A DNA stretch of 64,000 bases. Origin: an uncultured Chloroflexia bacterium. GTDB lineage: Bacteria > Chloroflexota > Limnocylindria > Limnocylindrales > CSP1-4. Positions 24,080 through 45,566 of this stretch are shown piece by piece (position 1 is the stretch's first letter; the number at the start of each line of letters is the position of its first letter). The notes beneath the pieces are model-generated. The model did not search any database and was not told the origin of the DNA. It worked only from the letters and a program-made list of their open reading frames with translations. The position numbers and the translations under genes are program-made. The DNA lies in NCBI GenBank assembly GCA_963838285.1, contig CAWIQP010000008.1, positions 88,686-152,685 on the forward strand. The letters run 5' to 3'.

Positions 24080-24350
24080 CGGCCAAGGATAGATCGCCCC
24101 GCACAAGGCGGGGCGCGCGTGTCCGGGCGCGCGGAGCACCGACGCCGCCGCCGGGCGCGGGGGCAGCGAAGGTACCCGGGCGAGGCCCCCGGAACGGCGG
24201 ATTCTGCGGGACGAGAGCGAGCGTAGACTGAGTCCGGGCACGTGGTGGGCGTTTGCCCGTATCCAGCCGTTGCCCCTCAGGCGGAGTACCGATGGAGGAA
24301 CTGCCGGGCAGCGCGTATGGCGCGGCCCGCCCGCCGACGGGATCGACTCG

Positions 24351-27300: not shown

Positions 27301-27554
27301 CGGCGCTCCGCGGTCATCTGGATGCCGGCGACGCCGAAGGGGCGACGCGCCAGGCTCACACGATCAAGGGCGCATCGGCCAACGTCGGCGGCGAGGCGGT
27401 GCGCGCGGCGGCCCTCGAGATCGAGAAGGCCGCCCGGGCCGGCGATCTCGCCGCGGCCGCGTCGCATCTCCCCGACCTCGAGACGCGCCTGGTCCGACTC
27501 ACCACGGCGATGCGGGCTTTCGTCGGCGAGGGCGGGCCGGAGGCGGCCTCGTGA
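24351..27554 (+). CDS. hybrid sensor histidine kinase: three to four PAS, HisKA, HATPase_c, two REC domains and a C-terminal Hpt
   Basis: ORF 24270..27554 (TTG start); first in-frame ATG is 24351. HisKA ([19 protein letters not shown]), HATPase (DTGIGIAPD...[10 protein letters not shown]), REC1 ([14 protein letters not shown]...DMQMPGMDG), REC2 ([13 protein letters not shown]...KPV) and Hpt ([14 protein letters not shown]). The stretch 26570-26770 is out of frame: the correct frame is ORF 26581..26883 ([13 protein letters not shown]...[12 protein letters not shown]), so two compensating frameshifts. Confidence 0.85.
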
Positions 27555-27570
27555 CGCGGCGGCCGCTCCC

Positions 27571-28494
27571 TTGAAGATCCTCATCGCCGACGACGACGTC
27601 ACCTCGCGCCTGGTCCTGGCCGGAGTGCTGAAGAAGCACGGCAACGAGGTCGCTGTCGCGGTCGACGGCGACGAGGCCTGGGAAGCCATGCAGCAACCGG
27701 ACGCACCGAGGCTGGTCATCCTCGACTGGGTCATGCCCGGGCTCGCCGGCGTGGACGTCTGCCGCCGCGCCCGGACCATCCAGTCCGATCAGCCGCCCTA
27801 CATCATCCTTCTGACCTCTCGGGGTGAGAAGACGGACATCGTGACCGGGCTCGAGGCCGGTGCCGACGACTACCTGGCGAAGCCCTTCGACCCCGGCGAG
27901 CTTCTGGCCCGGGTGGAGGTGGGCCGGCGCATGATCGACCTGCAGGCGAGACTGATCGAGGCCCGGGACGCGCTCGCCCACGAGGCCATGCACGACCCCC
28001 TGACCGGCGTTCTCAATCGCCGCGCGTTCGCCAGCGTCCTGTCGCGCGAACTCTTACGGAAGAAGCGACACCACAACCCGCTGGCCGTCGGGATCTGCGA
28101 CGTCGACAACTTCAAGCAGATCAACGACACGATGGGCCACCAGGCCGGAGACGAGGTACTGTGCGGTCTCGTCCGTCTGATCGAGCGCAACCTGCGCGGC
28201 CACGACGTCCTGGGCCGCCATGGCGGGGATGAGTTCGTGGTGCTCACCGAGCACGCCGCGGAGGACGACGCCGCCGTCCCGTACGAGCGGCTGCGAGCCG
28301 CGGTCGCGGACACTCCAATATCGACGGGCGCCGGAGACGTCCGCATCACGGTCAGCATCGGCGTGAGGATCGGGGCCGAAGGCGAGGACGAGGCGGAGCT
28401 ACTGGCGGCCGCGGACCGGGCCCTGTACCAGGCCAAGAGCGGTGGGCGCAATCGCGTCCAGATCGCTCGCGGTCCGAGCCAACCCGGCACGTAG
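27571..28494 (+). CDS. response regulator with a GGDEF diguanylate cyclase output (PleD/WspR-like)
   Basis: TTG at 27571 (LKILIADDD...). REC with phospho-Asp context (LVILDWVMPG). GGDEF domain with an intact active site (RHGGDEFVVL) and an I-site-like RxxD. Confidence 0.85.
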   Translation: MKILIADDDVTSRLVLAGVLKKHGNEVAVAVDGDEAWEAMQQPDAPRLVILDWVMPGLAGVDVCRRARTIQSDQPPYIILLTSRGEKTDIVTGLEAGADDYLAKPFDPGELLARVEVGRRMIDLQARLIEARDALAHEAMHDPLTGVLNRRAFASVLSRELLRKKRHHNPLAVGICDVDNFKQINDTMGHQAGDEVLCGLVRLIERNLRGHDVLGRHGGDEFVVLTEHAAEDDAAVPYERLRAAVADTPISTGAGDVRITVSIGVRIGAEGEDEAELLAAADRALYQAKSGGRNRVQIARGPSQPGT

Positions 28495-28713
28495 ACGGCC
28501 GCCGCGCGCGGGGCTCCCGGGCGCGTCGACGTATCGGTGCTCGGCCCTATCCGGCCGGACCCGCCGGGCGGGCCGGTCGGCAAGACGGCACGCCTCGTGT
28601 CATTCCGTGGGCCGCCCAGCGATCCATCCCGTGGAAGCGGCCGCCATCCACGTATCCTCGGCTACCCGAGCGTCCCGTCTCCGGGCACTGCCGGTTGGGA
28701 GCAGAGGAACTAG

Positions 28714-29637
28714 ATGGCAGCCGAGTACAACGCAACCGTAGTAGGTCGGGACGAGATCGCGCCCGGATTGATCAGCATCCGCGTCGCACCCGACAATCTC
28801 CCGTTCGAGTTCGAGCCGGGCCAGTACGTGGTGCTGGGGCTGAAGGCCAGCGAACCGCGGGTCTCAGAGGCAGACGCGGCGAGCGTGATGGAGGGAGAGG
28901 CGCCCGCCGGCACGCCGGAGGGCCAGTCGGGCGTAGCCGCGCAGGCTGCTGCCGCGGCACGAGCCGCGGCCAATTCGGATCGGATGATCCGCCGCGCCTA
29001 CTGCATAGCGTCGGACAGCCGCGCCGCCGAGCGTCTCGAGTTCTTCGTCACGCTGATCCTGAGTGGCGAGCTGACGCCGCGTCTGTTCAACCTCAAGGTC
29101 GGAGACCGGCTCTTCGTCGGCCCCAGAGCGGAGGGCGTCTTCACCCTCGACCCGGCGTCGACGAAGCACGTCCTCATGATCGCGACCGGGACCGGCCTGG
29201 CGCCGTACATGTCGATGATCCGCAACGAACTTGTGCTGCGGGTCGACGGGCGCGTCGGACTCCGAGCGATATGGCAGCGCAACGGACCGCGCCACTTCGC
29301 ACTGGTCCACGGAGCGCGCTACTCGTGGGATCTGGGCTACCGGACCGAGCTCACCGGTCTCTCCCGCAGCTGCAACAACTTCCACTACCTGCCGTCGATC
29401 ACCCGGCCCGACGAGGACGCCACCTGGAGCGGCCGGAGCGGCTACGTTCAGGACGTCATCGCCTCAGGCGTGGTCGAGCGTGAATCCGGTCTTGCTCTCA
29501 CGCCGGACAACTTCGACATCCTGCTTTGCGGCAACCCGGGCATGATCGAGACGGTGATCGGCTGGGCGGAGGCACGCGGCTTCACCCGGGACGACGGCCG
29601 CAACGCCGGCACACTCCACGTCGAGAAGTACTGGTAG
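28714..29637 (+). CDS. ferredoxin-NADP reductase family oxidoreductase (FAD/NAD-binding)
   Basis: RBS GGGAGCAGAGGAA upstream. GQYVVLGL...RAYCIASD (RxYS FAD motif) and NAD motif MIATGTGLAPYMSM. A low-complexity insert lies between the two FAD-binding strands. Confidence 0.75.
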   Translation: MAAEYNATVVGRDEIAPGLISIRVAPDNLPFEFEPGQYVVLGLKASEPRVSEADAASVMEGEAPAGTPEGQSGVAAQAAAAARAAANSDRMIRRAYCIASDSRAAERLEFFVTLILSGELTPRLFNLKVGDRLFVGPRAEGVFTLDPASTKHVLMIATGTGLAPYMSMIRNELVLRVDGRVGLRAIWQRNGPRHFALVHGARYSWDLGYRTELTGLSRSCNNFHYLPSITRPDEDATWSGRSGYVQDVIASGVVERESGLALTPDNFDILLCGNPGMIETVIGWAEARGFTRDDGRNAGTLHVEKYW

Positions 29638-29744
29638 CCCGGCCGCGCCCGGCGGTCGGGCCGCTCGGCCGCGGCGCGAGTCCGGCCGCGCCCGGCGACG
29701 GGGGGCGGCTCGGCCCAACAGGCCGAACAGGCCGCTCGACCGGG

Positions 29745-30224
29745 TCAGACCTCGCGCCAGATCCGGTACGGGCGGCTCACCAGATTGGCGTTGTAGTAGC
29801 GGGCGTCGCCCGTCACTTCCTCGCCGATCCAGTCCGGCAGTACGACGGCGGTCTCATCCGAGGGAAGCTCGACCTCGGCGACGACCAGGCCGTCGTTCTC
29901 GCCGCCGAAGACGTCGATCTCCCACACCAGTCCGCCGGAGGGAACGCGATATCGGGTCTTCTCGATCACAGGCCGGAGAGCCAGCCCATCGAGCAGCTCC
30001 TCCGCCTCCCCGACCGGGATCTCGTACTCGAATTCGGCCCGGCTGGTCCCGCTGGCCGAGGTGCGGCCTTTGACGTTCAGGAAGGCTCTCGTCCCGGCCA
30101 CCCGGACACGAACCGTCCGCTCGGGATCGACGGACAGGTAGCCCTGCCTCATGCGAATTCCCGGCAGGCCGGCAACGGCCGAGAGGTCGCGGACCAGGTA
30201 CTTGCGCTCGATTTCGACGCCCAA
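29745..30224 (-). CDS. CYTH-domain protein (CyaB/thiamine-triphosphatase-like triphosphate tunnel enzyme)
   Basis: 159 aa starting MGVEIERKYLV (the EIERKF signature), size typical of CYTH. Confidence 0.8.
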   Translation of the reverse strand: MGVEIERKYLVRDLSAVAGLPGIRMRQGYLSVDPERTVRVRVAGTRAFLNVKGRTSASGTSRAEFEYEIPVGEAEELLDGLALRPVIEKTRYRVPSGGLVWEIDVFGGENDGLVVAEVELPSDETAVVLPDWIGEEVTGDARYYNANLVSRPYRIWREV

Positions 30225-30318
30225 CGTCAGGCTCCTCGCGGCACCGGCCCACCCGGCATCGTCGTCCAGATCGAATTCCGCTCGCGGCCCGCCGGCGCTG
30301 CGGCCGCACGCGCATGAC

Positions 30319-31854
30319 TCAGGCGGAGACGGCGCTCCGGTGAGCGTGTCGCGCGGGACGCGCGGCCGGTTCCGCGTGTGGGTGGATCATCAGCGTCCGG
30401 TCGGCACGTGGGGCCGAGGTCGCGTACAGGTCGCAGAAGAGGTCGACGAGTTCCGGGTCGAACTGCACGTGAGCGAAGCGGCGCAGTTCGGCCACCGCGG
30501 CGTCGTGGCCGACGGCCGAGCGATAGGGCCGGTCGCGAACCATCGCGTCGTACGCGTCGGCGATGGCGACAATCCGCGCACCGAGTGGAATGTCGGCACC
30601 GCGCAAGCCGTAGGGATAGCCGCGGCCCGAGTAGTGCTCGTGGTGGTGGAGGATGATGGCCCGGGCGTCCCCTACCGCCGCCACGCGCTCGAGGATGGCG
30701 TCGCCGGCGCGAGGGTGCTGGACCACGCTCAGCCATTCGTCCGCGTCCAGGGGTCCCGGCTTCTCCAGGATGTACTCGGGCACGGCGAGCTTGCCAACGT
30801 CGTGCAGCAGAGCGGCGACGCGGATGCGCTCGATCTCGGCGTTGGGGAGGCCGAGCTCGACCGCCATCCGGACCGCGATGGCGGCGATGAGCGAGGAGGG
30901 CCGCCCGCTGTAGTGGGCACGCGGGGCGAGCACGGCCGCGAGGGCGGCTTCGGCTGCATGACGGGCCTGGTCACCCACCTCGGTCGCTCGCCGCCTTCCT
31001 TCGGGCGAGATCGGGGCGCGGGGAATGCGCGCCGCGTCGTCGTCGGTCTCGGCGAACACGTAGGTCTGGTTGCGGCCCAGCGACTTGGCGGCGTACATCG
31101 CCGCGTCGGCGTCGCGAAGAAGCTGGTCGACGCGGAGATGCTGCCCGCTCCCGCCGGCAATACCGATCGATACCGACACGCTGAACGCCTCACCTTGAGG
31201 GCCCTCGAACCGCTTGCGCAGGATCAGCTGGCGCACCTTCTCGGCGACGCCGGCGGCTTCCTCGATCCTTGTCTCCGGCAGGACCAGCACGAACTCCTCG
31301 CCGCCGTAGCGGCCGACGAAGTCCGATCCCCGGGTGTGCTCTCGGAAGACGCCCGCGACCTCGTGCAGCACCGCGTCGCCGGCCTCGTGGCCGTACGTGT
31401 CGTTGATCTCCTTGAAGTGGTCGAGATCGATGAAGGCGATGGTCAGCGGCCGATCGTGGCGGGTGGCCCGTTCGACTTCGGTGAAGAGTTGGGCGAGTAG
31501 CGTCGGTCGATTGGCCACCTGGGTCAGGCGATCTGTCGTCGCCTCCTCCCGGGCCACCCGCAGCGCCTCGGAGACGTCCTCGAGGCGGCGCGCGATCGGG
31601 ACGAGCGGCCCGAAGCGCCGGAAGGCGGGCGACGGAGCGGGGGCACCCTGCGCTATCGCCGCCGTCGCGGCGTCGAGTGTCTTCAGGGCGCTGCGAAGCG
31701 CGATCTCCACGCAGGCGATGCCGATGAGTGCGCCGGCGGCCAGCAGGAGCAGCGCTCCGCCGGCGAGAACATCCCCTCTCGAGAATGCCACCGTCCCGAC
31801 CGAAGCGGCCGCGGCCGCCGGAAGCAGCACCATGAATCCCCGCCATCCCGACAT
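30319..31854 (-). CDS. membrane-anchored GGDEF plus HD-GYP protein (c-di-GMP synthesis and hydrolysis domains)
   Basis: 511 aa: two TM helices, GGDEF (RYGGEEFVLVL), HD-GYP (LLHDVGK...HHHEHYSGRGYPYGL). Confidence 0.85.
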   Translation of the reverse strand: MSGWRGFMVLLPAAAAASVGTVAFSRGDVLAGGALLLLAAGALIGIACVEIALRSALKTLDAATAAIAQGAPAPSPAFRRFGPLVPIARRLEDVSEALRVAREEATTDRLTQVANRPTLLAQLFTEVERATRHDRPLTIAFIDLDHFKEINDTYGHEAGDAVLHEVAGVFREHTRGSDFVGRYGGEEFVLVLPETRIEEAAGVAEKVRQLILRKRFEGPQGEAFSVSVSIGIAGGSGQHLRVDQLLRDADAAMYAAKSLGRNQTYVFAETDDDAARIPRAPISPEGRRRATEVGDQARHAAEAALAAVLAPRAHYSGRPSSLIAAIAVRMAVELGLPNAEIERIRVAALLHDVGKLAVPEYILEKPGPLDADEWLSVVQHPRAGDAILERVAAVGDARAIILHHHEHYSGRGYPYGLRGADIPLGARIVAIADAYDAMVRDRPYRSAVGHDAAVAELRRFAHVQFDPELVDLFCDLYATSAPRADRTLMIHPHAEPAARPARHAHRSAVSA

Positions 31855-32015
31855 GCCCCGAGGGTACGGCCTGCGGAGTCGCCAAGCACCCTCCGAAGGT
31901 ACCGCTCCCGTTCACCTGATAGAACCAGGTGAACCGGCCGGCGATGGGGGTCGCCTCGTGACCGGCCGCTGCCTCCACCGCCCGTTCGGATCGGGCGTCG
32001 GAAGGAGCCTGCCGC

Positions 32016-33441: not shown

Positions 33442-35081
33442 ATGGAGTCGATCGTGAGTGACAAGGACCAGCCAAACACGAAGGGCGGATACGGGCCAGC
33501 CGCGTCGGCGGCCGCATCGAAGCCGTCGAAGGCGGACTCGCGGGGGTCGTTGGACGCGGAATCGCCCGAGTCTCCGGCCGCCGACCCTTCGACGCCCCCG
33601 GACGCCGACGTGACGACCTCGTCGGAGTCCGACCCTTCGACCTCGTCGGAGTCCGACCCTTCGACCTCGTCGGAGTCCGACTCGCCCGACCTGCCCGACA
33701 CGAACTCCAACGCCCCGGAGCGTCCCGGCCGGTCGCCGTCACTGGCGGCTTTCCTGTCATTCGTTTGGCCGGGCCTCGGGCAGCTGTATCTCCGCAACCG
33801 CCGGTTGGCGGCGGTCTTCGCGGTTCCTTCCCTCGTGGTGGTGGCGCTGCTGGCCTACGCCCTGCGGCGCGGTCCCGTGGTTCTGGCGGCGCAGCTTTTC
33901 GCCGAGCGGGGCGTCGGCCTGCTCACGGTGGCGATCATCATCCTGTTCGGGGCATGGCGTATCGCCTCGGTCGTTCTCGCGTTCCTCGGCGGGAACCGCA
34001 ACTCTCACAGAGTCGTGAACCGTGCGGTCCTGGGGGCGCTGGCGGCGATCATCGTCGTGATCCATCTCGGCGGCGGCTACTACCTGCTGGCCTATTCGGA
34101 TGCCGGGACTCAGGTCTTCAACCCCACCGACACCCATCTGATCGTCCAGGCCACGCAGGCGCCGAGCCTCGCTCCGGGTCAGACCCCTGGGCCTGCGGGC
34201 ACACCCGAGCCACTCGCGACCGTCGCCGGCGACGGTCGGGTGACCATCCTGTTCACCGGGACGAGCAGCGGGGCGAGTTCCAACCTCTACGACTCGATCA
34301 TGGTCGTCAGCTACGACCCTCAGGCCAACTCAATTCAGATGGTCAGCGTGCCCCGCGACAGCGCCAGCTTCCCCTTCTACTTCGGCGGCGTGGATGACCA
34401 CGTCTGTACAAGATCAACGCGCTGCCGACGTACGTCCGCAGCGGACGCATCAAGTCTCCGGACGATCCATACACGACGCTGATCAAAGAGGTCCAGTACC
34501 TCGTCGGCATCCCGATCAACTACTACGCCGTGATGGACATCGGCGGCTTCGAAACGATGATCGACAAGGTCGGCGGGATCGACGTGGTCAACCCCTACCC
34601 GATCGACGACCCGTCGTACGACTGGCTAGACGGCAGCCCGTACGGCTTCAGTCTCTCGGCCGGACCTCACCATCTCGACGGTCGTACCGCGATGGCCTTC
34701 GTGCGGAGCCGCCACGGCGTCGGGGATAGCGACTGGAAGCGGGCGTCGCGTCAGCAGCTGGTGCTCGTCGCCCTGCTGCACAAGATGGCTCGGCCGAGCG
34801 AGATCCTGAAGCTGCCGAGCCTCATCTCCACGCTGGGCGCGAGCGTCACGACCGACTTCCCGGCGGACAAGGTGGCGGACTTCGTGGCCCTCGGCCAGGA
34901 TGTCCCCTCCTCGAACTTCAGCCAGGTCGTCCTGGGGCCGCCCTACACCGTCACTGGCGTCAGCACCGTCAACGCGGCCAACTGCCTGCTCAACGACAAG
35001 GTCGCCGCGCTCTCGGTCCAGCTGTTCGGTACGGACAGTCTCTGGTCCGGCAAGCCCGCGCCCGCGAACACCTGTCCGTAG
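33442..35081 (+). CDS. LCP family protein, paralog 3 (close duplicate of paralog 2); frameshifted
   Basis: ORFs 33442..34482 and 34530..35081 are colinear with paralog 2 (same DKDQPN... start, SESDPSTS tail, TM, LCP motifs). There is a single-base frame change in gatgaccacgtctgtacaagatc (about 34400): downstream reading ...KINALPTYVRSGRIKSPDDPYTTLIKEVQYLVGIP is in the +1 frame. Confidence 0.75.
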
Positions 35082-35225: not shown

Positions 35226-36284
35226 TCACGTGGCCGGTGCGGTCACCTTGTTCGCCGGGTCGTTCACGTTCGTGATATCGAAGGAGATCTCGTACGGCTT
35301 ACCGCCGTCGCTCTCCTGGGCCACGACGTCCATGCTGATCGGGTAGCCGCCGGCTTTGGCCAGCCAGAGGTCGGCCGACCAGGTGTCGTACTGGCCGCCT
35401 TCGACCTCCTCGTCCAGAGCCTGGTCCGACCGATAGTGGTCGGTGCTCACGCCGTCCTTAGTCTCCGAACCGACCAGGGTGTAGTGCGAGGCCAGGTGCG
35501 GGTCCACGTACGACTCGACCAGGTGAGCCGGCGAGAGGAAGTCGAGTTCGTAGGGGTCGTCGAGCGGTCTCTCACTGAACTTACCGGTCCCGCCCTGGTC
35601 GACGTACATGGAGCTGCCGACCTTGATGATGTGGAGACCGGGGCAGGTAATGTCGGCGTCGAAGACCGACTCGAAGTTCGCGGTGGGGCCCGCCTGCTGG
35701 TTCGCGATGGTGCCCTTGACCGTATACGGGGCGCCGCCGCAGGAAGCGCTGGGGGCGAGCTGCGAGAGCGCGTAGGCAAAGTCGGCGCCCGGTGTGTTGG
35801 GGTCGGCGGCCGCGCCAACCAAGGTCATGCTGAACTTGTAGCTGGTGGCCTGCCTCAGGGAGTTCACCGCGACGAACATTCCGGTGCTGGGCTGAGGTGT
35901 GAGCAGCCCGCATTCGAGGCCCCCGCCGCAGGATCCCTGGTCGTTGTCGTCGCCGCTCGACCCTGAGCTCGCCGTAGCAGTCGCGCTGGACGTGGGGGTC
36001 GGGCTCTCGCTCGAGGTGACCGTCGGGCTCTCGCTCGCCATCTCGGTCGCCGTCGGGGCAATCGAGGCGGGCACTACGGTCAAGCCGCTCGGGCTCGGCG
36101 ACGGTAGGGGTGGCGGCGTGGGCGTGGGCGTGGCGGCGGAGGACGAACAGGCCGCGAGCGCGAGGGCCAGGAGCAGGACCGCCAGCGCAAGGGAAGCCAT
36201 CTGCGATCTACGCCGTCGGCCGGACCCGGGAGTCCCGCTGCGAAGCCCGACAACGCCACGACCGGTTCGAGAACGGGTCGCCAT
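35226..36284 (-). CDS. hypothetical lipoprotein with a Pro/Thr/Ser-rich linker
   Basis: ORF 35226..36479. Likely start MATRSRTGRG...RRRRSQMASLALAVLLLALALAACSSS (lipobox LAAC); an alternative ATG is at 36200. A Cys-containing globular domain follows. Confidence 0.6.
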   Translation of the reverse strand: MATRSRTGRGVVGLRSGTPGSGRRRRSQMASLALAVLLLALALAACSSSAATPTPTPPPLPSPSPSGLTVVPASIAPTATEMASESPTVTSSESPTPTSSATATASSGSSGDDNDQGSCGGGLECGLLTPQPSTGMFVAVNSLRQATSYKFSMTLVGAAADPNTPGADFAYALSQLAPSASCGGAPYTVKGTIANQQAGPTANFESVFDADITCPGLHIIKVGSSMYVDQGGTGKFSERPLDDPYELDFLSPAHLVESYVDPHLASHYTLVGSETKDGVSTDHYRSDQALDEEVEGGQYDTWSADLWLAKAGGYPISMDVVAQESDGGKPYEISFDITNVNDPANKVTAPAT

Positions 36285-36454
36285 GTGCGGCTCCCTCTGG
36301 CGCCTCGCGGAGGCGCCGGCCCTGTCCCGGGCCGGGGTGCCCCGACCCCTGAGAAGAGCAAGTGTAGCGAGGCGCACGTCGCCGATGGCGTCAAGTCGCG
36401 TGGTTGGCGCGAGTAGACTTTGCAGGTTGATCCGCCAGTGCCGGAGACGGGCCC

Positions 36455-37540
36455 TTGAAGCGGTACCCACAAAAGGCAACGACCATCGGCGACCTCGCGG
36501 CCGCCCTCGGCCTGTCGCCGGCTGCAGTCTCGGTGGCGCTCCGCGGCAAGCCCGGAGTCTCCAGCGCGACCAGGGCCCGCGTCATCGAGGCGTCGGCCAA
36601 GATGGGCTACCAGCTCGCGTCCACGGCCTCCAGACGCCGCCGCGATCCCATGACCGTGACGCTGGTGATTCGGGCGCTCCCCGAACAGCCGGCCACTAAC
36701 GTCTTCTACGGCCCGATTCTCTCCGGCATCGAGCAGCGGTGCCGCGGACTCGATGTCCGTTTGGTCTTCGCCATCATGCCGGTAGACGAGCGCAATCACC
36801 CTCTCGAAGTTCCGCGGTCGGTGACCGACCATCCCACCGATGGGTTGATTTTGGTCGGCGCCGACATCGGCACTCGGTGGGCGTCGTTGCTCCGCGTCGG
36901 CGCGGTTCCCACGGTGCTCGTGGACGGGTATGCCGAGGACGAGGGGCTCGACTCGGTCGATATCGACAACGCCTCCGGCGCTCGCACTGCGGTGCGCTAC
37001 CTGATCGGCCGCGGGCATAGCGAGATCGCGATCGTCGGTACCGCGCCCAACGCATTCCCCAGCGTCCGTGAGCGTCGAGTCGCATACGAGCAGGTGATGA
37101 GCGAGGCTCGCCTGACGCCGCACTATGTGGACGTCCCCTACTACGATCACGAACGCGCCGCGGAGGCGGCCGTCCAGTACGTCCTCGCCCACCCGGAGGT
37201 GACGGCCCTCTTCTGCGCCAACGACCTGACCGCGATCACATTCCTGCAAGGTGCTCGCGTGGCCGGGATATCGGTCCCCGACCAGGTTTCGGTAGTCGGC
37301 TTCGACGACATCGACCTGGCCAGCATCATCCTTCCGGGGCTCACCACGATGGCGGTGGACAAACCTGGCATGGGCCGCCTTGCCGTCACGCTCCTGCTGC
37401 ACCAGCTCGAGTTCGGGAAGATCGCCGGGTGCACCACCCTGGTCAAGCCGACGCTGGTCGAGAGGGCGACGGTCCGCACGATCGCACGAGAGGCGCCGGA
37501 GGTGAGCACGGCGCCTGTCTCCGAATCGGCATCCGCATAG
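36455..37540 (+). CDS. LacI family transcriptional regulator
   Basis: N-terminal HTH (TIGDLAAALGLSPAAVSVALRG...ATRARVIEASAKMGYQ) plus a periplasmic-binding-protein-like sugar-binding domain. Confidence 0.85.
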   Translation: MKRYPQKATTIGDLAAALGLSPAAVSVALRGKPGVSSATRARVIEASAKMGYQLASTASRRRRDPMTVTLVIRALPEQPATNVFYGPILSGIEQRCRGLDVRLVFAIMPVDERNHPLEVPRSVTDHPTDGLILVGADIGTRWASLLRVGAVPTVLVDGYAEDEGLDSVDIDNASGARTAVRYLIGRGHSEIAIVGTAPNAFPSVRERRVAYEQVMSEARLTPHYVDVPYYDHERAAEAAVQYVLAHPEVTALFCANDLTAITFLQGARVAGISVPDQVSVVGFDDIDLASIILPGLTTMAVDKPGMGRLAVTLLLHQLEFGKIAGCTTLVKPTLVERATVRTIAREAPEVSTAPVSESASA

Positions 37541-37668: not shown

Positions 37669-39600
37669 GTGCTATTACGTATGGGCGGCCGTCGGTACTA
37701 CCGTCGTCTCGTGATTGCGGACGAGGAGCTGGCACTTGCAAGGGCGGCCCTTCGCTCAGCCGACGCCCTCTCCGACCCCCTCTTCGCGACCTCGCTGGTA
37801 GGCTCGCAGCGGCGCCGTTTCGGCTTCGACGTGGATACCGCCGCGCTCCTCGTCTCGTGGTCCGAGCGACACACCGGCGGCGTGGAGCGCCGCTACCCGT
37901 GGCCGATCACCACCCGCCATGTTTGGGAGTGGCCCGCGTACGTCGGCCCGCGGGAAGGTTGGCGTCCCTGGCGCCCCCGCGACGAAACCACGCTCGACGA
38001 CGAGGACCGGAGAGCCTTCGAGGACAGATTCCTGGTCCCGTTGATCCTCTCCGAAACGGTCGAGTTCCTCGCGGCCACCGGGGAGAAGGCGGGCCGTGTC
38101 GGCGACCTCGCGCGCCACCTGCTCGAGCCGGCCCGCAGCAAGGTCCGCCGTGACGCTTCCGCGCATACACGCGAGGCCCACGCCTGGGGCGACACCTGGG
38201 CGCTGTGGTGCTTTGCCCGTCGCCCGCACATGCTGCGTCTCGTCTACCCCTTCGCCCTCGCCATCGCCGACGCCTACGCCGAGGCGACCTGGCGCAACGG
38301 AGGTCATGAGGTTCTGGGAACCCGCTACCCGTTCCACGGCGAGCCTCTCGTCTCGGCCTCGGCGCAGCTCGCCTCGGGCCTTGCCGCCCTTGGATACCAC
38401 CCGCAGCTGGTCGCTGCACTCACGACTTACGTCGCCGCCCACCAGGATGTTCGCGGTGGCTGGGGCGATGCCGACGGCCGGCCGGATCTGCTCACCACTT
38501 TGGTTGCGGCTGAACTCCTCGCCGGCCTCGATCCCGACTACGACCCCGCACCAACGGCCGCCTTCCTGGCGCGTCGCCAGCGTCGGGACGGCTGGTGGAC
38601 GGCCTACGGGCCCGAAACGGCCTGGCTGACCACGGAGGTCGAAGCCTGGCTGGAGAGAGTGGACCTTCCCTTCTCAGCCCGGTTCCGCTGGCCGCAGCTG
38701 GCATTGGCCCAGCGCGACAGACGCACTCACTTGCCGCTCTACGGCTACTACGAGGACCTGGCAGCGCTTTGCAACGCGCTGCCGGGGCTGTCCGCGTCGA
38801 ACGTCGAACTCGCCTTCCTGGACCTGGTCGGCTTCCGCGAGGTCAACAACCGCCTCGGGATGGCCGCCGGCGACGAGGTCCTTGTCGCCTTCGCCGCGGC
38901 GCTCGCCGCAATACCCGAGGCGATGGCCGTTCGCGACGGCGGCGACGAGTTCCTCGTGCTGGGAGCCCCGGGCGGAAGCGGCCTTGCGAGAAGACTGGAC
39001 GACTTCCGCCAGAGCTGGCCGGCGGTCTACCACGCCCAGTTCGGGGTCGACGCGCCTCCGGTCGCCCCACGCGTCCTTGTCGCCCAGACCGAGGGCCGTC
39101 ATCTCGTATGGCTCCGAGACGAGCTTGGACGGCGGGTCGGCGAGCTCAAGGACCGAGTGCGCGATGTCGGAGCTGAGGGCGTACAGGTCGACCTTGGGAT
39201 GCAGTGGCCGGGGACCGCGCCGACTGCTTCTGAAGGGACGGGCGCGCAGACCGCGACTTTGGCGGCTCTGGCCGGCGGCCCGAAGCCTGCTCGCTACGTC
39301 GAAGGGGCCGACCTGGTTCCGCTGCAGACGCATCCGATCGAAGGCGCCGAGGTGCAGAAGGTCGTCGTTGTCGGCGGTCGAGCCTACTTCGGCAGCGGGG
39401 CCAACCATCGGGAGCTGATACGGGGCGCCGGGCTGGAGGCGTCCGCCGTGGAGGCGACGGGGATCGCCTACTTCTCACGGAGTCGGTCGACGTCCGGCGC
39501 CGTGGCCTCGAAGACGGAAGACGGTGTTGACCGGACGGCGCAACCGGGCGCGGGCCTTGCCGAGGCGTCGCGCCCCACGGGTCGCGGGCGATCGCCCTGA
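37669..39600 (+). CDS. GGDEF-domain protein with an N-terminal alpha/alpha-toroid (prenyltransferase / squalene-cyclase-repeat-like) region and an unassigned C-terminal region
   Basis: 643 aa. Central GGDEF with intact motifs (LDLVGFREVNNRLGMAAGDEVL...RDGGDEFLVLG). Upstream are repeats of the type VRGGWGDADGRPDLLTTLVAAELLAGL and RRDGWWTAYGPETAWLTTEVEAWL. The last approximately 170 aa are unassigned. Confidence 0.75.
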   Translation: MLLRMGGRRYYRRLVIADEELALARAALRSADALSDPLFATSLVGSQRRRFGFDVDTAALLVSWSERHTGGVERRYPWPITTRHVWEWPAYVGPREGWRPWRPRDETTLDDEDRRAFEDRFLVPLILSETVEFLAATGEKAGRVGDLARHLLEPARSKVRRDASAHTREAHAWGDTWALWCFARRPHMLRLVYPFALAIADAYAEATWRNGGHEVLGTRYPFHGEPLVSASAQLASGLAALGYHPQLVAALTTYVAAHQDVRGGWGDADGRPDLLTTLVAAELLAGLDPDYDPAPTAAFLARRQRRDGWWTAYGPETAWLTTEVEAWLERVDLPFSARFRWPQLALAQRDRRTHLPLYGYYEDLAALCNALPGLSASNVELAFLDLVGFREVNNRLGMAAGDEVLVAFAAALAAIPEAMAVRDGGDEFLVLGAPGGSGLARRLDDFRQSWPAVYHAQFGVDAPPVAPRVLVAQTEGRHLVWLRDELGRRVGELKDRVRDVGAEGVQVDLGMQWPGTAPTASEGTGAQTATLAALAGGPKPARYVEGADLVPLQTHPIEGAEVQKVVVVGGRAYFGSGANHRELIRGAGLEASAVEATGIAYFSRSRSTSGAVASKTEDGVDRTAQPGAGLAEASRPTGRGRSP

Positions 39601-39719
39601 CGATGCCGGCCGTGGTGGCGCCATAGCCCGCTCGGTCGTCCTTCTCCAATCCAACCGGGGTTGTCCACGAGCCGCGCGACCACTTCATCTGAGCGTCCGA
39701 GAAACCAAGTGGGGAGGTT

Positions 39720-40964
39720 TTGCACATGCCGGTCGTCAGAGCAGGTCCAAACCAATACCTGTTGGTTGGCCACCGAGGGAGGCTGCAGAACCGGGGCTCG
39801 GCCGTGCAGGCCATCTTGCTCCCCGGCGCCATCTATGTGCTCGTGCCGGCGACGAAGCAGGAGGCCGCCTTCGAGTTCACGCAGGAAACCAGGGATGGCA
39901 TTCCGTTGCGCTTCAAGGGAATCGTCATCTATCGCATCACCGACCCTGCGGCGGCGGCCCGGCTGTTCGACTTCAGCGCCGGAGTTGGTCTGACGCAGAT
40001 CAGCGCACTCCTGACGCACGTGTGCCTGGGAGAACTGCGCCACGCCGTCTCCCACATGACCATGGTCGAATGCATCGAGCAGCGCAAGACCACGCTGAGT
40101 GGAGTCGTCGAAACCGCTTTGCGCTCGACCATTCACAACGAGGACGGTCAGGCGAACGACTGGGGGATAAGCGTCGAGGTCGCCCAGGTGGCGCAGGTGT
40201 TCATCGTGGACGCCCAGCTGCGCCAGCAACTGGAAGCCGAGGTCCGCAACGAGATCAAGCTCAAGAGCGACCAGTCGAACATCCTGGCTCAGCAGGAGAC
40301 TCGACTGGCGGAGATGGAATCCGCGGGGCGAGTCGAAGAGAAGCAGCTGGCAAACGACAGGGAGAGCTTGCGGCGCAAGGAAGAGATGGAGCTGGCTCAG
40401 CTGGCTCGCCAACGGCGTATGCAGGCAGAGAACCTGGCAACCGAACGCCAGGCCCTCCAGCTCGAACAGGAGAAGTTCCACGCCCAATTGGACGTGGAAC
40501 AGGATCGGGTGAATACGGAAACGCCGGTTCGACTGCTCAGAATCGCGAAGGAGAGCGGAGTCCTTCGCGAGGAACTGGAGCTTCGGAAGCTGCAGAACCA
40601 GGCCAAGGCGTTCGAAGTGGAGGGCGAACTGCAGCTAACTCGTGCCCAGCAGGAGCTTCGTCGCGAGATGCTGCCGCTGGAGCAGGCACCGCGGATCGTG
40701 GAATCGGCCTCGCAGGTGCTGCGTGGCACGAACCTGTCCATCTACGGAGAGAACAGCCAACTCCTCGGTCAACTCGCTCCCATCTTCGAATACCTGACGC
40801 GCGCAGTTCAGCAGGCGACACAGGGCAGTACCCAGCGGGCACCGGAACCTGACGAGTCTCCCGTCGCGGCGGCGCCCACTTCCTCTGAGGGCCCGGGAGA
40901 AGTCGCCGGCGTTCGCGCCGGACGCAGGCTGCAGACACCGCGCGAAACCGACCGGCCGAAATAG
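39720..40964 (+). CDS. SPFH/band-7 family protein (flotillin-like) with a long coiled-coil
   Basis: 414 aa: SPFH core (IPLRFKGIVIYRITDPAAAARLF...), then heptad-rich EAEVRNEIKLKSDQSN...ELELRKLQNQAKAFEVEGELQL. Confidence 0.8.
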   Translation: MHMPVVRAGPNQYLLVGHRGRLQNRGSAVQAILLPGAIYVLVPATKQEAAFEFTQETRDGIPLRFKGIVIYRITDPAAAARLFDFSAGVGLTQISALLTHVCLGELRHAVSHMTMVECIEQRKTTLSGVVETALRSTIHNEDGQANDWGISVEVAQVAQVFIVDAQLRQQLEAEVRNEIKLKSDQSNILAQQETRLAEMESAGRVEEKQLANDRESLRRKEEMELAQLARQRRMQAENLATERQALQLEQEKFHAQLDVEQDRVNTETPVRLLRIAKESGVLREELELRKLQNQAKAFEVEGELQLTRAQQELRREMLPLEQAPRIVESASQVLRGTNLSIYGENSQLLGQLAPIFEYLTRAVQQATQGSTQRAPEPDESPVAAAPTSSEGPGEVAGVRAGRRLQTPRETDRPK

Positions 40965-41220: not shown

Positions 41221-42300
41221 ATGAAGATTCTGGTTGTTGGTGACTCTTACTGCCCGTGGCGCGCGCTCGGACCGGCGATCGATAGCCTCGCCGTGGACCA
41301 CGAGGTCACCAAGTTCGACGTCGTGGACGAGCCGGCATGGCGCCCGACCACACCGTCGGAGCAGAAAGTGCGGGAGTACCTCGGCAGCCCTCGCCAGGTC
41401 ATCGAGAGACTCGACGGCCACGAGGTCCTGATCGTCCAGGGGGCGCCGGTGACCGACGCCGTGATGGACGCGTCCCCGGCGTTGAAGCTCGTGTGCGTCG
41501 CCCGCGGCGGTCCCGTCAACGTGGACATCGCCGCGGCCACGGAGCGCGGCATCGCCGTCGTCACGACGCCCGGCAAGAACGCTCAGGCCGTGGCGGAGCT
41601 GACGATCGCCTTCATGGTGATGCTGGCCAGGCGGCTGCCCGAGGTGGTCCGGTTCCTCGAGGGCGGGGGCGAACTGGCCCGCGACAACTACGAGGGCGCC
41701 AAGTGGATGGGCCACGACCTAGATGGCCACGTCCTCGGTCTCATCGGCTACGGGCAGATCGGTCATCGCGTGGCACGCATCGCCAGGGCGATCGGCATGC
41801 ATGTGATCGTCTCGGACCCGTACGTTCCGGCTGCCCGGATCGAGGCGGATGGGGCGGAGCCGGTCGACCTGGACACGCTGCTGGCTACCGCCGACTACGT
41901 CTCGATCCACGCCCGCGCAACAGCGGACAACAAGGGCATGATCGGGCGGGCCCAGATAGCGCTGATGAAGAAGGGCGCCTGCCTGATCAACACTGCTCGC
42001 GACACGCTCGTAGATGAAGATGCGGTCTACGACGCTCTCCGTTCCGGCCACCTCGCCGGCGGCGGCTTCGACGTCGTCCGCATCCCCGACCTCTCGATTC
42101 CGCCGGAGCTGGGCCGGCGCCACCGCCTCTACGACGCCCCGAACGTAGTCATCGCCACTCACGTCGGCGGCGCCACGTTCGAGACGATGGGCCACGGCGG
42201 GGAGATGGCCGCAGCCGAGATCGGCCGGCTGGCCGCCGGCGAGCCGTTCGTCAACCTGGCCAATCCGGCCGCGCTCGAGAAGGTGGGAAACCATGCCTGA
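41221..42300 (+). CDS. D-isomer-specific 2-hydroxyacid dehydrogenase (phosphoglycerate / 4-phosphoerythronate dehydrogenase-like)
   Basis: AGGTGA RBS. Rossmann GLIGYGQIGHRVARIA, plus catalytic R/E/H-type residues in ...NTARDTLVDEDAV...ATHVGGAT. The stop overlaps the FGGY kinase start. Confidence 0.85.
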   Translation: MKILVVGDSYCPWRALGPAIDSLAVDHEVTKFDVVDEPAWRPTTPSEQKVREYLGSPRQVIERLDGHEVLIVQGAPVTDAVMDASPALKLVCVARGGPVNVDIAAATERGIAVVTTPGKNAQAVAELTIAFMVMLARRLPEVVRFLEGGGELARDNYEGAKWMGHDLDGHVLGLIGYGQIGHRVARIARAIGMHVIVSDPYVPAARIEADGAEPVDLDTLLATADYVSIHARATADNKGMIGRAQIALMKKGACLINTARDTLVDEDAVYDALRSGHLAGGGFDVVRIPDLSIPPELGRRHRLYDAPNVVIATHVGGATFETMGHGGEMAAAEIGRLAAGEPFVNLANPAALEKVGNHA

Positions 42301-43855
42301 TGCGCACGTCATGGCGATCGACCTGGGAACCGGGAGCTGCCGCGCCCTCATCTTCGACCAAGATGGTCACCAGGTGGCGATGGCCCAGCGCGAGTGGTCG
42401 CACCCGCCTCTCGCGGGAGCGCCCGGCTCGCAGCAGTTCGAGACCGCCCGCAACTGGCCGCTGATCTGCGAGTGCATCCACGAAGCCCTCGCGATGAGCG
42501 GCCTGCCCGCCGACGCGATCAAGGGTGTTTCGAGCACGGCCATGCGCGAGGGCATGGTCCTCTACGACGCGTCCGGAGCCGAGATCTGGGCGTGTCCAAA
42601 TGTCGACTCGCGTGCCGGTGACGAAGCGACTCAGCTGATTGCCGCGGGGGACGCGCGGAGGATCTACGACACCGGCGGCGACTGGGTCTCTATCACCTCC
42701 CCTGCCCGCTTCCTCTGGATCAAGAACCACCAACCGGACGTCTTCGCCCGCATCGCCCACATGGGCATGCTCAGCGACTGGGTTCTCACCAGGCTGTCGG
42801 GCAAGTTCGCCACCGATCCCTCGATCGGCGCAAGCTCAGGCCTGTTCGATCTGGCGAAGGCCGACTGGTCGCCCGAGCTGATCCGCCTGATCGGCCTCGA
42901 GCCCGGGATCTTTCCGGAGGTTCGCCAGCCGGGCACGGTCCTGGGCGATGTGACGGGCAAGGCCGCCGCAGAGACGGGCCTGGCCGCCGGAACGCCGGTC
43001 GTGGTCGGCGGCGCCGACACTCAGCTGGGTCTGCTGGGGATCGGCCGGACCACGCCGAACGCGTTCACGCTCGTGGGCGGCAGCTTCTGGCAGAGCACAG
43101 TCGTCGTGGATAGGCCGCTCATCGATCCGGAGGCGCGGCTCCGCTCCCTCTGCCACGTCATGCCGGGGCAGTGGATGGTCGAGGGCATCGGCTTCTACTG
43201 CGGCCTGACGATGCGCTGGTTCCGCGACGCCTTCTGCGACCTGGAGAAGGCCCGGGCCGCCGAGCGCGGAGTGGATCCGTTCATGGTCATGGAAGAGGAA
43301 GCGGCCACGGTCCCACCGGGATCGAATGGCGTGCTGCCCATCTTCGGCAACATCATGGATGCCAAGCGCTGGGTGCAGGCGTCGCCCTCGTTCGTTCAGT
43401 TCGACATCGACAATCCCGGCACCTCGGGCCGCAAGGAGTGCGTTCGGGCCATCGAGGAGAGTGCCGCCTACGTCGCCCTGGGGCACCTGCGGATCATCGA
43501 GAGCCTGACGGGCTACAGGTTCGAGGAGATCGTGTTCACCGGCGGTGGGGCCAAGGGACACCTCTGGCCGCAGGTTATCGCCGACGTGCTGGGCGTCTCC
43601 GTCAAGGTCCCCGAGGTCAAGCAATCCACCGCCCTGGGCGCCGCGCTGTGCGCCGGCCTGGGCGCGGGCATCTACGGCGATCTGGCAGCCACTGCCGCCG
43701 AGGTCGTCCGTTTCGAGCGGACGTTCGAGCCCGACGCGGCCGCCCACGCCGCCTACCTCACTCTTTTCGACCTGTGGCACGCCGTCTACGGCCGTTTCCT
43801 CGAGATGGGCGACGCCGGCCTGCTGCGCCCGCTCTGGAAGCCCGCCGGAGCCTGA
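42293..43855 (+). CDS. FGGY-family carbohydrate kinase (LsrK / xylulokinase / L-erythrulose-kinase-like)
   Basis: 520 aa: [16 protein letters not shown] (FGGY N-terminal phosphate-1 motif), C-terminal [20 protein letters not shown]. Confidence 0.9.
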
Positions 43856-43929
43856 CCCACACGAACTCAGTACAGCCCACCGATCAGTTCGCCATCCCCA
43901 CCCAGGGACCGGGCAGAAAGAGGAGCGAG

Positions 43930-44825
43930 ATGCCGGAAGCCGACAACGCCGAAGAGAAGAGCTACTACGAAGACGTTCCGCAGCGAAACAGCGCCTTCTT
44001 CCTCAAGGGCGCCGGGGCATACGACTGGGGCATGCAGAACCGCCTGGCCCGGGTCTTCAACCCGGAGAGCGGCAAGACGGTCATGCTGGCCGTCACTACG
44101 GTTACTTCATGGGCCCGACGTCGGGCCTCGAGCGGATCGACGTCAACATCGTGCCGCTCGTCCCCTACACCGACGCCCTCTTCTGCACACGCGGCATCCT
44201 GCGGACAGTCGTACCCGCGGCGACCCGTACGCCGAACGTCCTTCGCGCAAGCGGCGGTCCCTCGATCCTCAAGGAGCTGTCGAACGAGCAGATCGCCATG
44301 GACATGGAGGATGCCGTCCGGCTGAACAGCTGCGGGGTCGGCGTCCAGGTCTTCGTCGGTGGTGAGTTCGAGACCCAGTCCATCCACAACATGACCCGCC
44401 TGGTGGACGCCGGGCTCCGGGTAGGACTGCCCGTCCTGGGCGTCACCGCCGTCGGCAAGGACATGGTCCGCGACGCCAAGTACTTCCGCCTCGCGACCCG
44501 CATCTGCGCCGAGCTGGGCGCCCAGATGGTCAAGACCTACTACGTGCCCGACGGTTTCGAGACCGTCACGGCGTCGTGCCCGGTGCCGATCGTCATGGCC
44601 GGCGGCAAGAAGCTGCCCGAGATCGAGGCCCTGACGATGGCCTATCGGGCCGTCCAGGAAGGCGCCGCCGGAGTCGACATGGGCCGCAACATGTTCCAGA
44701 GCGAGTCGCCCGTAGCCATGATCCAGGCCGTCCGCAAGGTGGTGCACGAGGCCATGAAGCCCGAGCACGCGCTGGAGCTGTTCAAGACGCTCACGTCCGA
44801 GTCCAAGCAGCCCGTCGGCGCGTAG
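43930..44825 (+). CDS. class I aldolase of the DhnA/LsrF (DeoC-fold) family; one frameshift
   Basis: ATG at 43930 ([35 protein letters not shown]...GKTVMLAV). It continues in ORF 43545..44825 as [12 protein letters not shown]...KTYY...MAGGKK (Schiff-base lysine region). One base is missing in gtcactacggttac near 44096. Confidence 0.75.
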
Positions 44826-44834
44826 GCACCCGCG

Positions 44835-45566
44835 ATGGCGACGACAGCGCACCTGCCGTTTCTCGACGGCAGGGCTCGCCTGACCATCGGGATCAACACC
44901 GCCGACCTGGGGCACCTTGCCGACGAGGTCCGCGTCCTCGAGGACGCCCGGGCCGAGATCGTCCACGTCGACGTCATGGACGGCGTCTTCTGCCCGGCGA
45001 CCACCGTCGGGCCGCCCTTCATCAAGGCGATCAGGACGCCGCTTCTCAAGGACGCCCACCTTATGATCGTCGACCCGATCGAGAAGGTGGCCGACTACGT
45101 CGCGGCGGGCGCCGACATCGTCACCTTCCAGGTCGAGTCCACTCGCCATTCCTATCGGGGCCTGCAGGTCCTCGGCAAGGCCGAGAACGCCAACGACCCG
45201 GCCCGCGGGATCGTCCGGGGAGTGGCGCTCAACCCGGGGACGCCCGTATCGGCGGTGGAGCCGCTGCTCGACGAGATCGGGAGTACGTGCTCATCCTGGC
45301 CGTCAATCCCGGCTGGGGCGGCCAGAAGTTCATCGAGTCCACCGAACGCCGCATGGCCGAAGCGGAAGGTTCTATCAAGCGCTCCGGCCGGCAGATCATG
45401 CTCGGCGCCGACGGCGGCGTGACGAAGGACAACATCGCCAGAGTCGCCGGCCATGGGGCCGAACCTCATCGTCACCGGCAGCGCCGTCTTCGACGGCAAG
45501 ACTCCGGCCGACAACGCCCGTTTCATGCTCGACGCGGTCCGGGGCATCGCGGTGGCGACGACGTAG
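44835..45566 (+). CDS. ribulose-phosphate 3-epimerase family protein; two compensating frameshifts
   Basis: N-terminal part (IVHVDVMDGVFCP, ...ALNPGTPV) in ORF 44835..45422. Middle (EYVLILAVNPGWGGQKFIESTERRMAEA...IMLGADGGV) lies in the frame of ORF 44576..45631. The C-terminus (GPNLIVTGSAVFDGKTPADNARFMLDAVRGIAVATT*) returns to the first frame, with stop at 45564-45566. Confidence 0.75.

Follow-up and report, generated by a model that had tools for sequence, protein, structure and literature searches.

Within the 64,000-nucleotide stretch of an uncultured Chloroflexia genome that we analysed (contig CAWIQP010000008.1, positions 88,686 to 152,685; hereafter the window), the interval 37669-40964 is filled by two same-strand open reading frames (ORFs). 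The first encodes a 643-residue protein in which an N-terminal (alpha/alpha)6 toroid is joined to a GGDEF domain, and the second encodes a flotillin-like SPFH/Band 7 protein. We think it rather likely, with considerable room for doubt, that the first protein is a soluble diguanylate cyclase whose toroid binds a ligand and thereby controls productive dimerisation of the GGDEF domain. The toroid-GGDEF architecture has no model or match in Pfam, NCBIfam, PADLOC or the PDB, and no report of such a fusion was found in the searchable literature, which is an incomplete sample, so that its absence is no proof. An earlier reading of this DNA from the sequence alone (the original prediction) had likewise found the architecture unfamiliar.

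Long chance ORFs are frequent at the window's G+C content of approximately 69%. Both ORFs are real genes, because the G+C content at first, second and third codon positions (GC1, GC2 and GC3) stays coding-like to their last codons, and because the first has at least 288 homologues and the second has orthologues at 57 metagenome loci (50-88% identity). Both genes, with all features given for them below, lie on the plus strand. The toroid-GGDEF gene was called at 37669-39600, with a coding GC3 pattern throughout. In one public annotation, the identical protein (P0001) is 639 residues long, which, by length alone, would fit a start at ATG 37681 (Met5). The SPFH ORF was called at 39720-40964 (414 residues), and a start at ATG 39726 is more likely than one at 39720, since a GGAGG motif (39713-39717) lies 8 nucleotides upstream of it. 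A sequence scan of the intergenic spacer (39601-39725) found no terminator-like or sigma-70-like site; as no promoter or terminator consensus separates the genes, the scan neither shows nor excludes their co-transcription.

The GGDEF domain (residues ~345-512, 38701-39204) carries the active-site motif RDGGDEF (residues 422-428, 38932-38952), which is invariant in the 121 sequences that we aligned. In the same alignment, D385, F389, N393, G397, G401, D402, R422 and D423-G-G-D-E-F428 are invariant and K494 is 97% conserved; the invariant residues align with the D-x-x-x-F, N, G-D and R-x-GGDEF positions of the Thermotoga cyclase 4urs. We take D385, N393, D402 and R422 to be the counterparts of PleD D327, N335, D344 and R366, and thus to include the metal-binding Asp and the guanine-specifying Asn and Asp. 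Pfam PF00990 matched residues 375-431 at 31.1 bits (gathering threshold 23.8), and NCBIfam gave only sub-threshold diguanylate cyclase equivalogs for the 643-residue protein. The complete GGDEF fold is nevertheless present, with a five-stranded core and flanking helices over approximately 160 residues that extend to residue ~512; its C-terminal half is divergent, and Pfam therefore covers only the domain centre. The RxxD I-site, an optional feature five residues before GGDEF, is absent, with I-P-E-A in its place (family consensus I-P-G-x). The original prediction had described a catalytically intact GGDEF domain without any PAS, GAF, REC or transmembrane sensor. This description agrees with the catalytic and guanine-binding residues retained in the alignment and with Pfam, which shows GGDEF alone, and the domain is probably an active but atypical cyclase.

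The N-terminal half was modelled as a toroid. Residues 1-348 are all-helical in an AlphaFold2 (AF2) model built from a 107-sequence alignment (predicted local distance difference test score, pLDDT, 93.3; predicted template modelling score, pTM, 0.92). The domain itself (residues ~1-340, 37669-38688) comprises 12 barrel helices, an N-terminal helix and a conserved RYRW...WxPWRP loop, and has the (alpha/alpha)6 barrel fold by which the terpenoid cyclase/protein prenyltransferase superfamily is recognised. Its nearest solved folds are class II terpene cyclases, prenyltransferase beta subunits, thioester domains and AGE epimerases. Terpene cyclases and prenyltransferases took the top ranks in Foldseek (8pak: E-value 7e-4, probability 1.0, template modelling score 0.48), in a ranking that takes sequence into account too. 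A GAF- or HAMP-type sensor is excluded for this half by the confident all-helical model and its Foldseek relatives, and the earlier assignment to an alpha/alpha toroid stands.

At the sequence level, the tie of the toroid to the Prenyltrans and SQHop_cyclase families appears weak but recurrent. Among 45 family members, sub-threshold Pfam matches were obtained to Prenyltrans in seven and to SQHop_cyclase_N and SQHop_cyclase_C in five each (best E-values 0.007-0.01), and T2SSK (four members) was the sole other listed non-GGDEF family to match more than one member. The window protein itself matched none of these three Prenyltrans and SQHop_cyclase families at E ≤ 1, and a profile search of the PDB returned, for the toroid, only 7xkx (E-value 0.35). 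The last two hairpins form two tandem QW/prenyltransferase-like repeats (38398-38670), at residues 244-291 with QDVRGGWGDADGRPDLLTTLVAAELL and at residues 292-334 with RQRRDGWWTAYGPETAWLTTEV. They carry Q-x-x-x-G-G-W-G / D-G-W-W motifs, and alignment of the two sub-alignments with hhalign indicated that they are homologous to one another (E-value 2e-4). The kinship with terpene cyclases and prenyltransferases that had been proposed is thus borne out by the nearest sequence and structure relatives. The toroid is followed by an interdomain linker, PFxxRFRWP (residues 334-342, 38668-38694), in which P334, F335, R338, F339, W341 and P342 are 89-100% conserved.

Approximately 60 toroid positions are at least 85% conserved across the 121 aligned sequences, including R75, R160, R161, D162, D175, D267, D273, D288 and E316, and a large share of the conserved positions are Arg, Asp, Trp, Ser or Thr residues in the loops from which the inner helices begin. 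In the same material we looked for the signatures of catalysis known from the related enzymes. No DxDD general-acid motif occurs anywhere in the 643-residue protein, in which the conserved loop reads G-D267-x-D-G-x-x-D273-x-L-T-T, and neither DDxxD/E nor the CGEQ thioester motif was found in the toroid. With regard to Zn ligands, Cys does not exceed 40% of the sequences in any toroid column, and His is at most 83% conserved and nowhere invariant. The toroid shares the fold class of terpenoid cyclases and prenyltransferases and should not be classed as either a terpene cyclase or a prenyltransferase. As every catalytic signature checked (DxDD, DDxxD/E, CGEQ and conserved Cys) is missing, a ligand-binding regulatory role appears to be the most likely one for this domain.

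The distribution of the toroid points in the same direction. A phmmer search with the toroid alone in 1.84 billion cluster representatives retrieved 118 proteins at E ≤ 1e-3, nearly all of them toroid-GGDEF proteins of approximately 500 residues or fragments thereof. Found essentially only in fusion with GGDEF (118 clusters), the toroid behaves as expected of a dedicated regulatory domain. From a scan of species-representative genomes, 80 loci were kept; all of them are in metagenome-assembled genomes (MAGs), mostly of Chloroflexota (Limnocylindria-like "Chloroflexia") or Myxococcota (Polyangia), and the closest relative of the window protein among them, at 76% identity, is in a Chloroflexia MAG (L001). 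A few members of the wider family depart from the basic layout: a C-terminal His_Phos_1 phosphatase domain follows GGDEF in three cluster representatives (P0012, at locus L084 6001-8232, P0154 and P0179), one 955-residue protein (P0167) has an extra canonical GGDEF domain (residues 251-401) ahead of the toroid-GGDEF unit, and a distant family match (P0216) has a weak match to SQHop_cyclase_C. A His_Phos_1 protein is also one downstream neighbour among the genome loci.

These data also bear on whether the toroid might itself be an enzyme, such as a non-canonical terpene cyclase, a prenyl-diphosphate-utilising enzyme or a sugar isomerase, in which case the protein would be bifunctional or its GGDEF domain would regulate or report that chemistry. 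Conservation of approximately 60 positions at 85% or more is typical for active sites, the nearest folds are nearly all enzymes, and the occurrence of His_Phos_1 in three independent members hints at a phosphorylated small-molecule substrate. Nevertheless, we consider an enzymatic toroid unlikely, given that it has no DxDD, DDxxD/E, Zn-ligand Cys, thioester motif or invariant His, that the toroid-GGDEF gene has no conserved neighbour from a terpenoid or sugar pathway, and that the toroid is essentially never found alone or with partners other than GGDEF.

We therefore favour a cytoplasmic diguanylate cyclase in which the (alpha/alpha)6 toroid would serve as the regulatory input, a part usually played by PAS, GAF, REC or transmembrane sensors. 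Invariant Arg, Asp and Trp residues are numerous where loops lead into the inner helices, which suggests that the toroid accommodates a small ligand, probably an anionic or lipid-like one. Taken together with the phosphatase fusions, these conserved loops, rich in Arg and Asp, give a hint that a phosphorylated or diphosphorylated compound could be this ligand. Its binding would shift how two GGDEF domains pair and thus alter synthesis of cyclic di-GMP (c-di-GMP); to our knowledge, c-di-GMP synthesis is set by such pairing in all diguanylate cyclases characterised so far. The SPFH protein, in turn, may organise or localise one or two diguanylate cyclases for local c-di-GMP signalling. This role is suggested by gene neighbourhood, as SPFH genes adjoin toroid-GGDEF genes in several lineages and multi-transmembrane GGDEF genes elsewhere.

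The SPFH gene (39726-40964 with the likelier start) encodes a protein of flotillin-like layout, with a Pfam Band_7 match at residues 8-191 (53.7 bits, gathering threshold 23.6) followed by a helical segment of approximately 145 residues (~190-335) that, by composition, is rich in E, Q, R and L. No Pfam family other than Band_7 matched the protein at E ≤ 0.1, and it has no sequence match to any solved SPFH structure. For the two proteins of the pair, PADLOC, NCBIfam and PDB sequence searches added no named family to GGDEF and Band_7. The original prediction had paired this gene with the cyclase gene as a possible membrane-microdomain signalling unit. We searched for SPFH homologues around toroid-GGDEF genes by tblastn with the window SPFH protein. 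Neighbours were clustered from GC3-filtered ORFs, as wrong-frame Arg/Pro-rich ORFs swamp the raw ones in high-GC genomes, and this filtered list showed no SPFH ORF beside the toroid-GGDEF gene of L044. By tblastn, an SPFH homologue lies within 10 kb at 4 of the 80 genome loci, none of them from Myxococcota: directly downstream of the toroid-GGDEF gene in L004 and L044, directly upstream in L010 and 7 kb off in L006.

Seen from the SPFH side, the pairing is more frequent. GGDEF genes make up 13 of the 37 distinct upstream neighbours of SPFH orthologues, four of them toroid-GGDEF genes (L085, L111, L112 and L137) and nine of a multi-transmembrane type; in a further case (L108), additional to these 13, the toroid gene is downstream of SPFH. 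The nine belong to an unrelated family with a multi-transmembrane N-terminus and a canonical GGDEF domain. At least five transmembrane-like segments were present in each of the five full-length ORFs checked, the transmembrane region had no Pfam family match, and an RxxD I-site could be discerned by eye in one sequence (L098). Both cyclase types also occur together, in different Chloroflexota MAGs: the gene order is transmembrane-GGDEF, SPFH, toroid-GGDEF in L010 (7381-11500) and transmembrane-GGDEF, toroid-GGDEF, SPFH in L044 (7469-11359), and all three genes lie inside 9 kb in L006 (10001-19602). The transmembrane type of GGDEF partner is absent beside the pair in the window.

A neighbour-joining tree places the SPFH-linked toroid genes in five sub-clades of Chloroflexota, separate from one another, and the Myxococcota clade contains none of them. 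Their occurrence in five sub-clades with varied gene order, together with upstream GGDEF genes of two architectures at 13 of 37 SPFH loci, argues for an SPFH-diguanylate cyclase pairing that is real, clade-limited and non-random within one Chloroflexota lineage. On this gene-order evidence, the conserved unit in that lineage is this SPFH protein with a diguanylate cyclase, the toroid cyclase being one of two partners that alternate or occur jointly. The proposed pairing with SPFH thus survives at the level of these sub-clades and SPFH loci, whereas co-conservation across the toroid-GGDEF family, with SPFH at 4 of 80 loci, does not; taken strictly, this lack of co-conservation is an outcome that the original prediction had named as refuting. 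Thioredoxin-reductase-like genes (14-19 loci) and LLM oxidoreductase, DnaX and ABC neighbours were also considered as partners and were rejected as clade-local synteny. No report of a link between SPFH/flotillin proteins and GGDEF/diguanylate cyclases was found in the searchable literature, an incomplete sample.

Two further readings give the neighbourhood a larger part. The toroid might be a platform for protein-protein docking or oligomerisation, for example on an SPFH scaffold or for a constitutive cyclase dimer. We hold this to be about as improbable as an enzymatic toroid: most members, including all those of Myxococcota, have no SPFH neighbour, so that SPFH-specific docking cannot account for the family-wide conservation, and conservation falls on charged or aromatic residues in the loops of the repeat motifs, a pattern more typical of a pocket. 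In a more elaborate reading, a flotillin-like SPFH scaffold would join the multi-transmembrane and toroid cyclases in a local unit, the toroid would sense an isoprenoid lipid or prenyl diphosphate, and c-di-GMP would report the lipid state of the microdomain; we regard this combination as distinctly unlikely.

Several observations weigh against a ligand-controlled toroid cyclase working with an SPFH protein. In the GGDEF domain, the PF00990 match spans only profile positions 29-87 of 161, the Lys of the FK motif (PleD K332) is replaced by Arg390 in the window protein and by Gly in most members, and the canonical GH motif reads GM. Because of this partial match and the replacement of the FK Lys and GH His, the cyclase may be slow, altered or non-catalytic. 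With regard to the SPFH partner, the gene is missing near toroid-GGDEF at 76 of the 80 genome loci and is not co-conserved with it family-wide; no family-wide conserved partner gene emerged from Pfam scans of the nearest downstream genes of 76 loci. The SPFH protein also has no clear membrane segment, its top 19-residue hydropathy (1.6) falling inside the SPFH domain. A GGDEF domain that makes no c-di-GMP and is instead a degenerate nucleotide receptor, or a maker of linear pppGpG or a different cyclic dinucleotide, is very improbable, since the divergent C-terminal half, the partial Pfam match, the loss of the canonical FK Lys and GH His in most members and the phosphatase fusions of some are set against 97-100% conservation of GGDEF, the metal Asp, the guanine-specific Asn and Asp, R422 and K494, against the usual loss of GGDEF in degenerate receptors, and against the retention of D402, whose equivalent is replaced in Hypr-type cyclic GMP-AMP synthases.

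Beyond the GGDEF domain, the window protein ends in a clade-specific extension (39205-39597). The original prediction had left 170 C-terminal residues unassigned; the extension is really approximately 130 residues, since the GGDEF fold reaches residue ~512. In the full-length AF2 model, residues 513-555 are disordered, residues 556-604 (39334-39480) form a beta-beta-alpha-beta mini-domain of approximately 50 residues (pLDDT 72-80), and residues 605-643 are a disordered tail. The extension is confined to the closest relatives (P0001-P0006, 73-100% identical), and a search with it alone found no homologues. A match of L039 to residues 510-641 was rejected as spurious, as it reads through stop codons.

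A two-component/c-di-GMP cluster (24093-31911) lies 6-13 kb upstream of the pair. It comprises a hybrid PAS-HisKA-HATPase-REC-Hpt kinase (24093-27551, plus strand), a REC-GGDEF gene (27235-28491, plus strand), a CYTH-domain protein (29748-30386, minus strand) and a GGDEF+HD-GYP protein (30322-31911, minus strand). The REC-GGDEF and GGDEF+HD-GYP genes, 6-10 kb upstream, indicate that the organism has c-di-GMP synthesis and degradation. Nearer to the pair, a LytR-CpsA-Psr (LCP) gene is apparently split over two overlapping frames (33442-34482 and 34398/34530-35081); its LCP domain apparently runs on across both frames, for which a frameshift, pseudogene formation or misassembly could be the cause. 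It is followed by a 417-residue ORF (35226-36479, minus strand) with Pro/Ser/Thr-rich linkers, a lipoprotein-like N-terminus (LALALAACSSS) and no Pfam family match. A LacI-family regulator (36455-37540) is directly upstream of the pair, and a sugar-type cluster (41221-45422) with a 2-hydroxyacid dehydrogenase, a 520-residue ORF and a DeoC-type aldolase is directly downstream, so that the pair stands between a regulator and apparent sugar-metabolism genes. The 76% identical relative in L001 has other flanks, namely a serpin and a HAD hydrolase. A reading as a defence system was dropped, because neither the toroid-GGDEF nor the SPFH protein had a PADLOC match at E ≤ 0.1, the flanking genes are of housekeeping type and nothing in the context points to a mobile element.

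Should the toroid be a sensor, it would represent a new input class for c-di-GMP signalling, possibly for isoprenoids or other bulky anionic metabolites, and one of the few instances in which a barrel of the terpene-cyclase type serves signalling instead of catalysis. Dozens of different sensor domains are known from GGDEF cyclases. We found no report of a diguanylate cyclase governed by an alpha/alpha toroid, and this sensor fold is undescribed in the searchable literature. Scaffolded local c-di-GMP signalling has been debated mainly in Proteobacteria, and the recurrent SPFH-cyclase neighbourhood, with its two unrelated cyclase architectures, provides a concrete candidate for it. The toroid-GGDEF family, coming from uncultured soil Chloroflexota and Myxococcota, also offers a way into signalling in phyla that have been little studied.

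Compared with known sensor-coupled diguanylate cyclases (PleD, WspR, DgcZ, YfiN/TpbB and TM1788), the window protein has an alpha/alpha toroid at its N-terminus and not a REC, CZB, PAS, GAF, HAMP or transmembrane region; it also has no RxxD I-site, its FK Lys and GH His are unconserved, and Pfam reaches only the central third of its GGDEF domain. The toroid differs from single-domain class II terpene cyclases, such as the myxobacterial 'squalene-hopene cyclases' (8pak/8paj), MstE (6sbb) and drimenyl diphosphate synthase (7xq4/8zg0), in that it lacks DxDD, is fused to a signalling domain, reaches Pfam families only below threshold (best E-value ~0.007) and has no terpenoid genes nearby. It differs from protein prenyltransferase beta subunits (FTase, GGTase-I and RabGGTase) by the absence of conserved Zn-site Cys/His and of an alpha-subunit partner. 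Unlike the bacterial flotillins FloT/YuaG and YqiK, the window SPFH protein has no clear N-terminal membrane hairpin; like them, it combines an N-terminal Band_7 domain with a subsequent E/Q/R/L-rich helix of approximately 145 residues, and flotillins scaffold signalling proteins, for example the kinase KinC.

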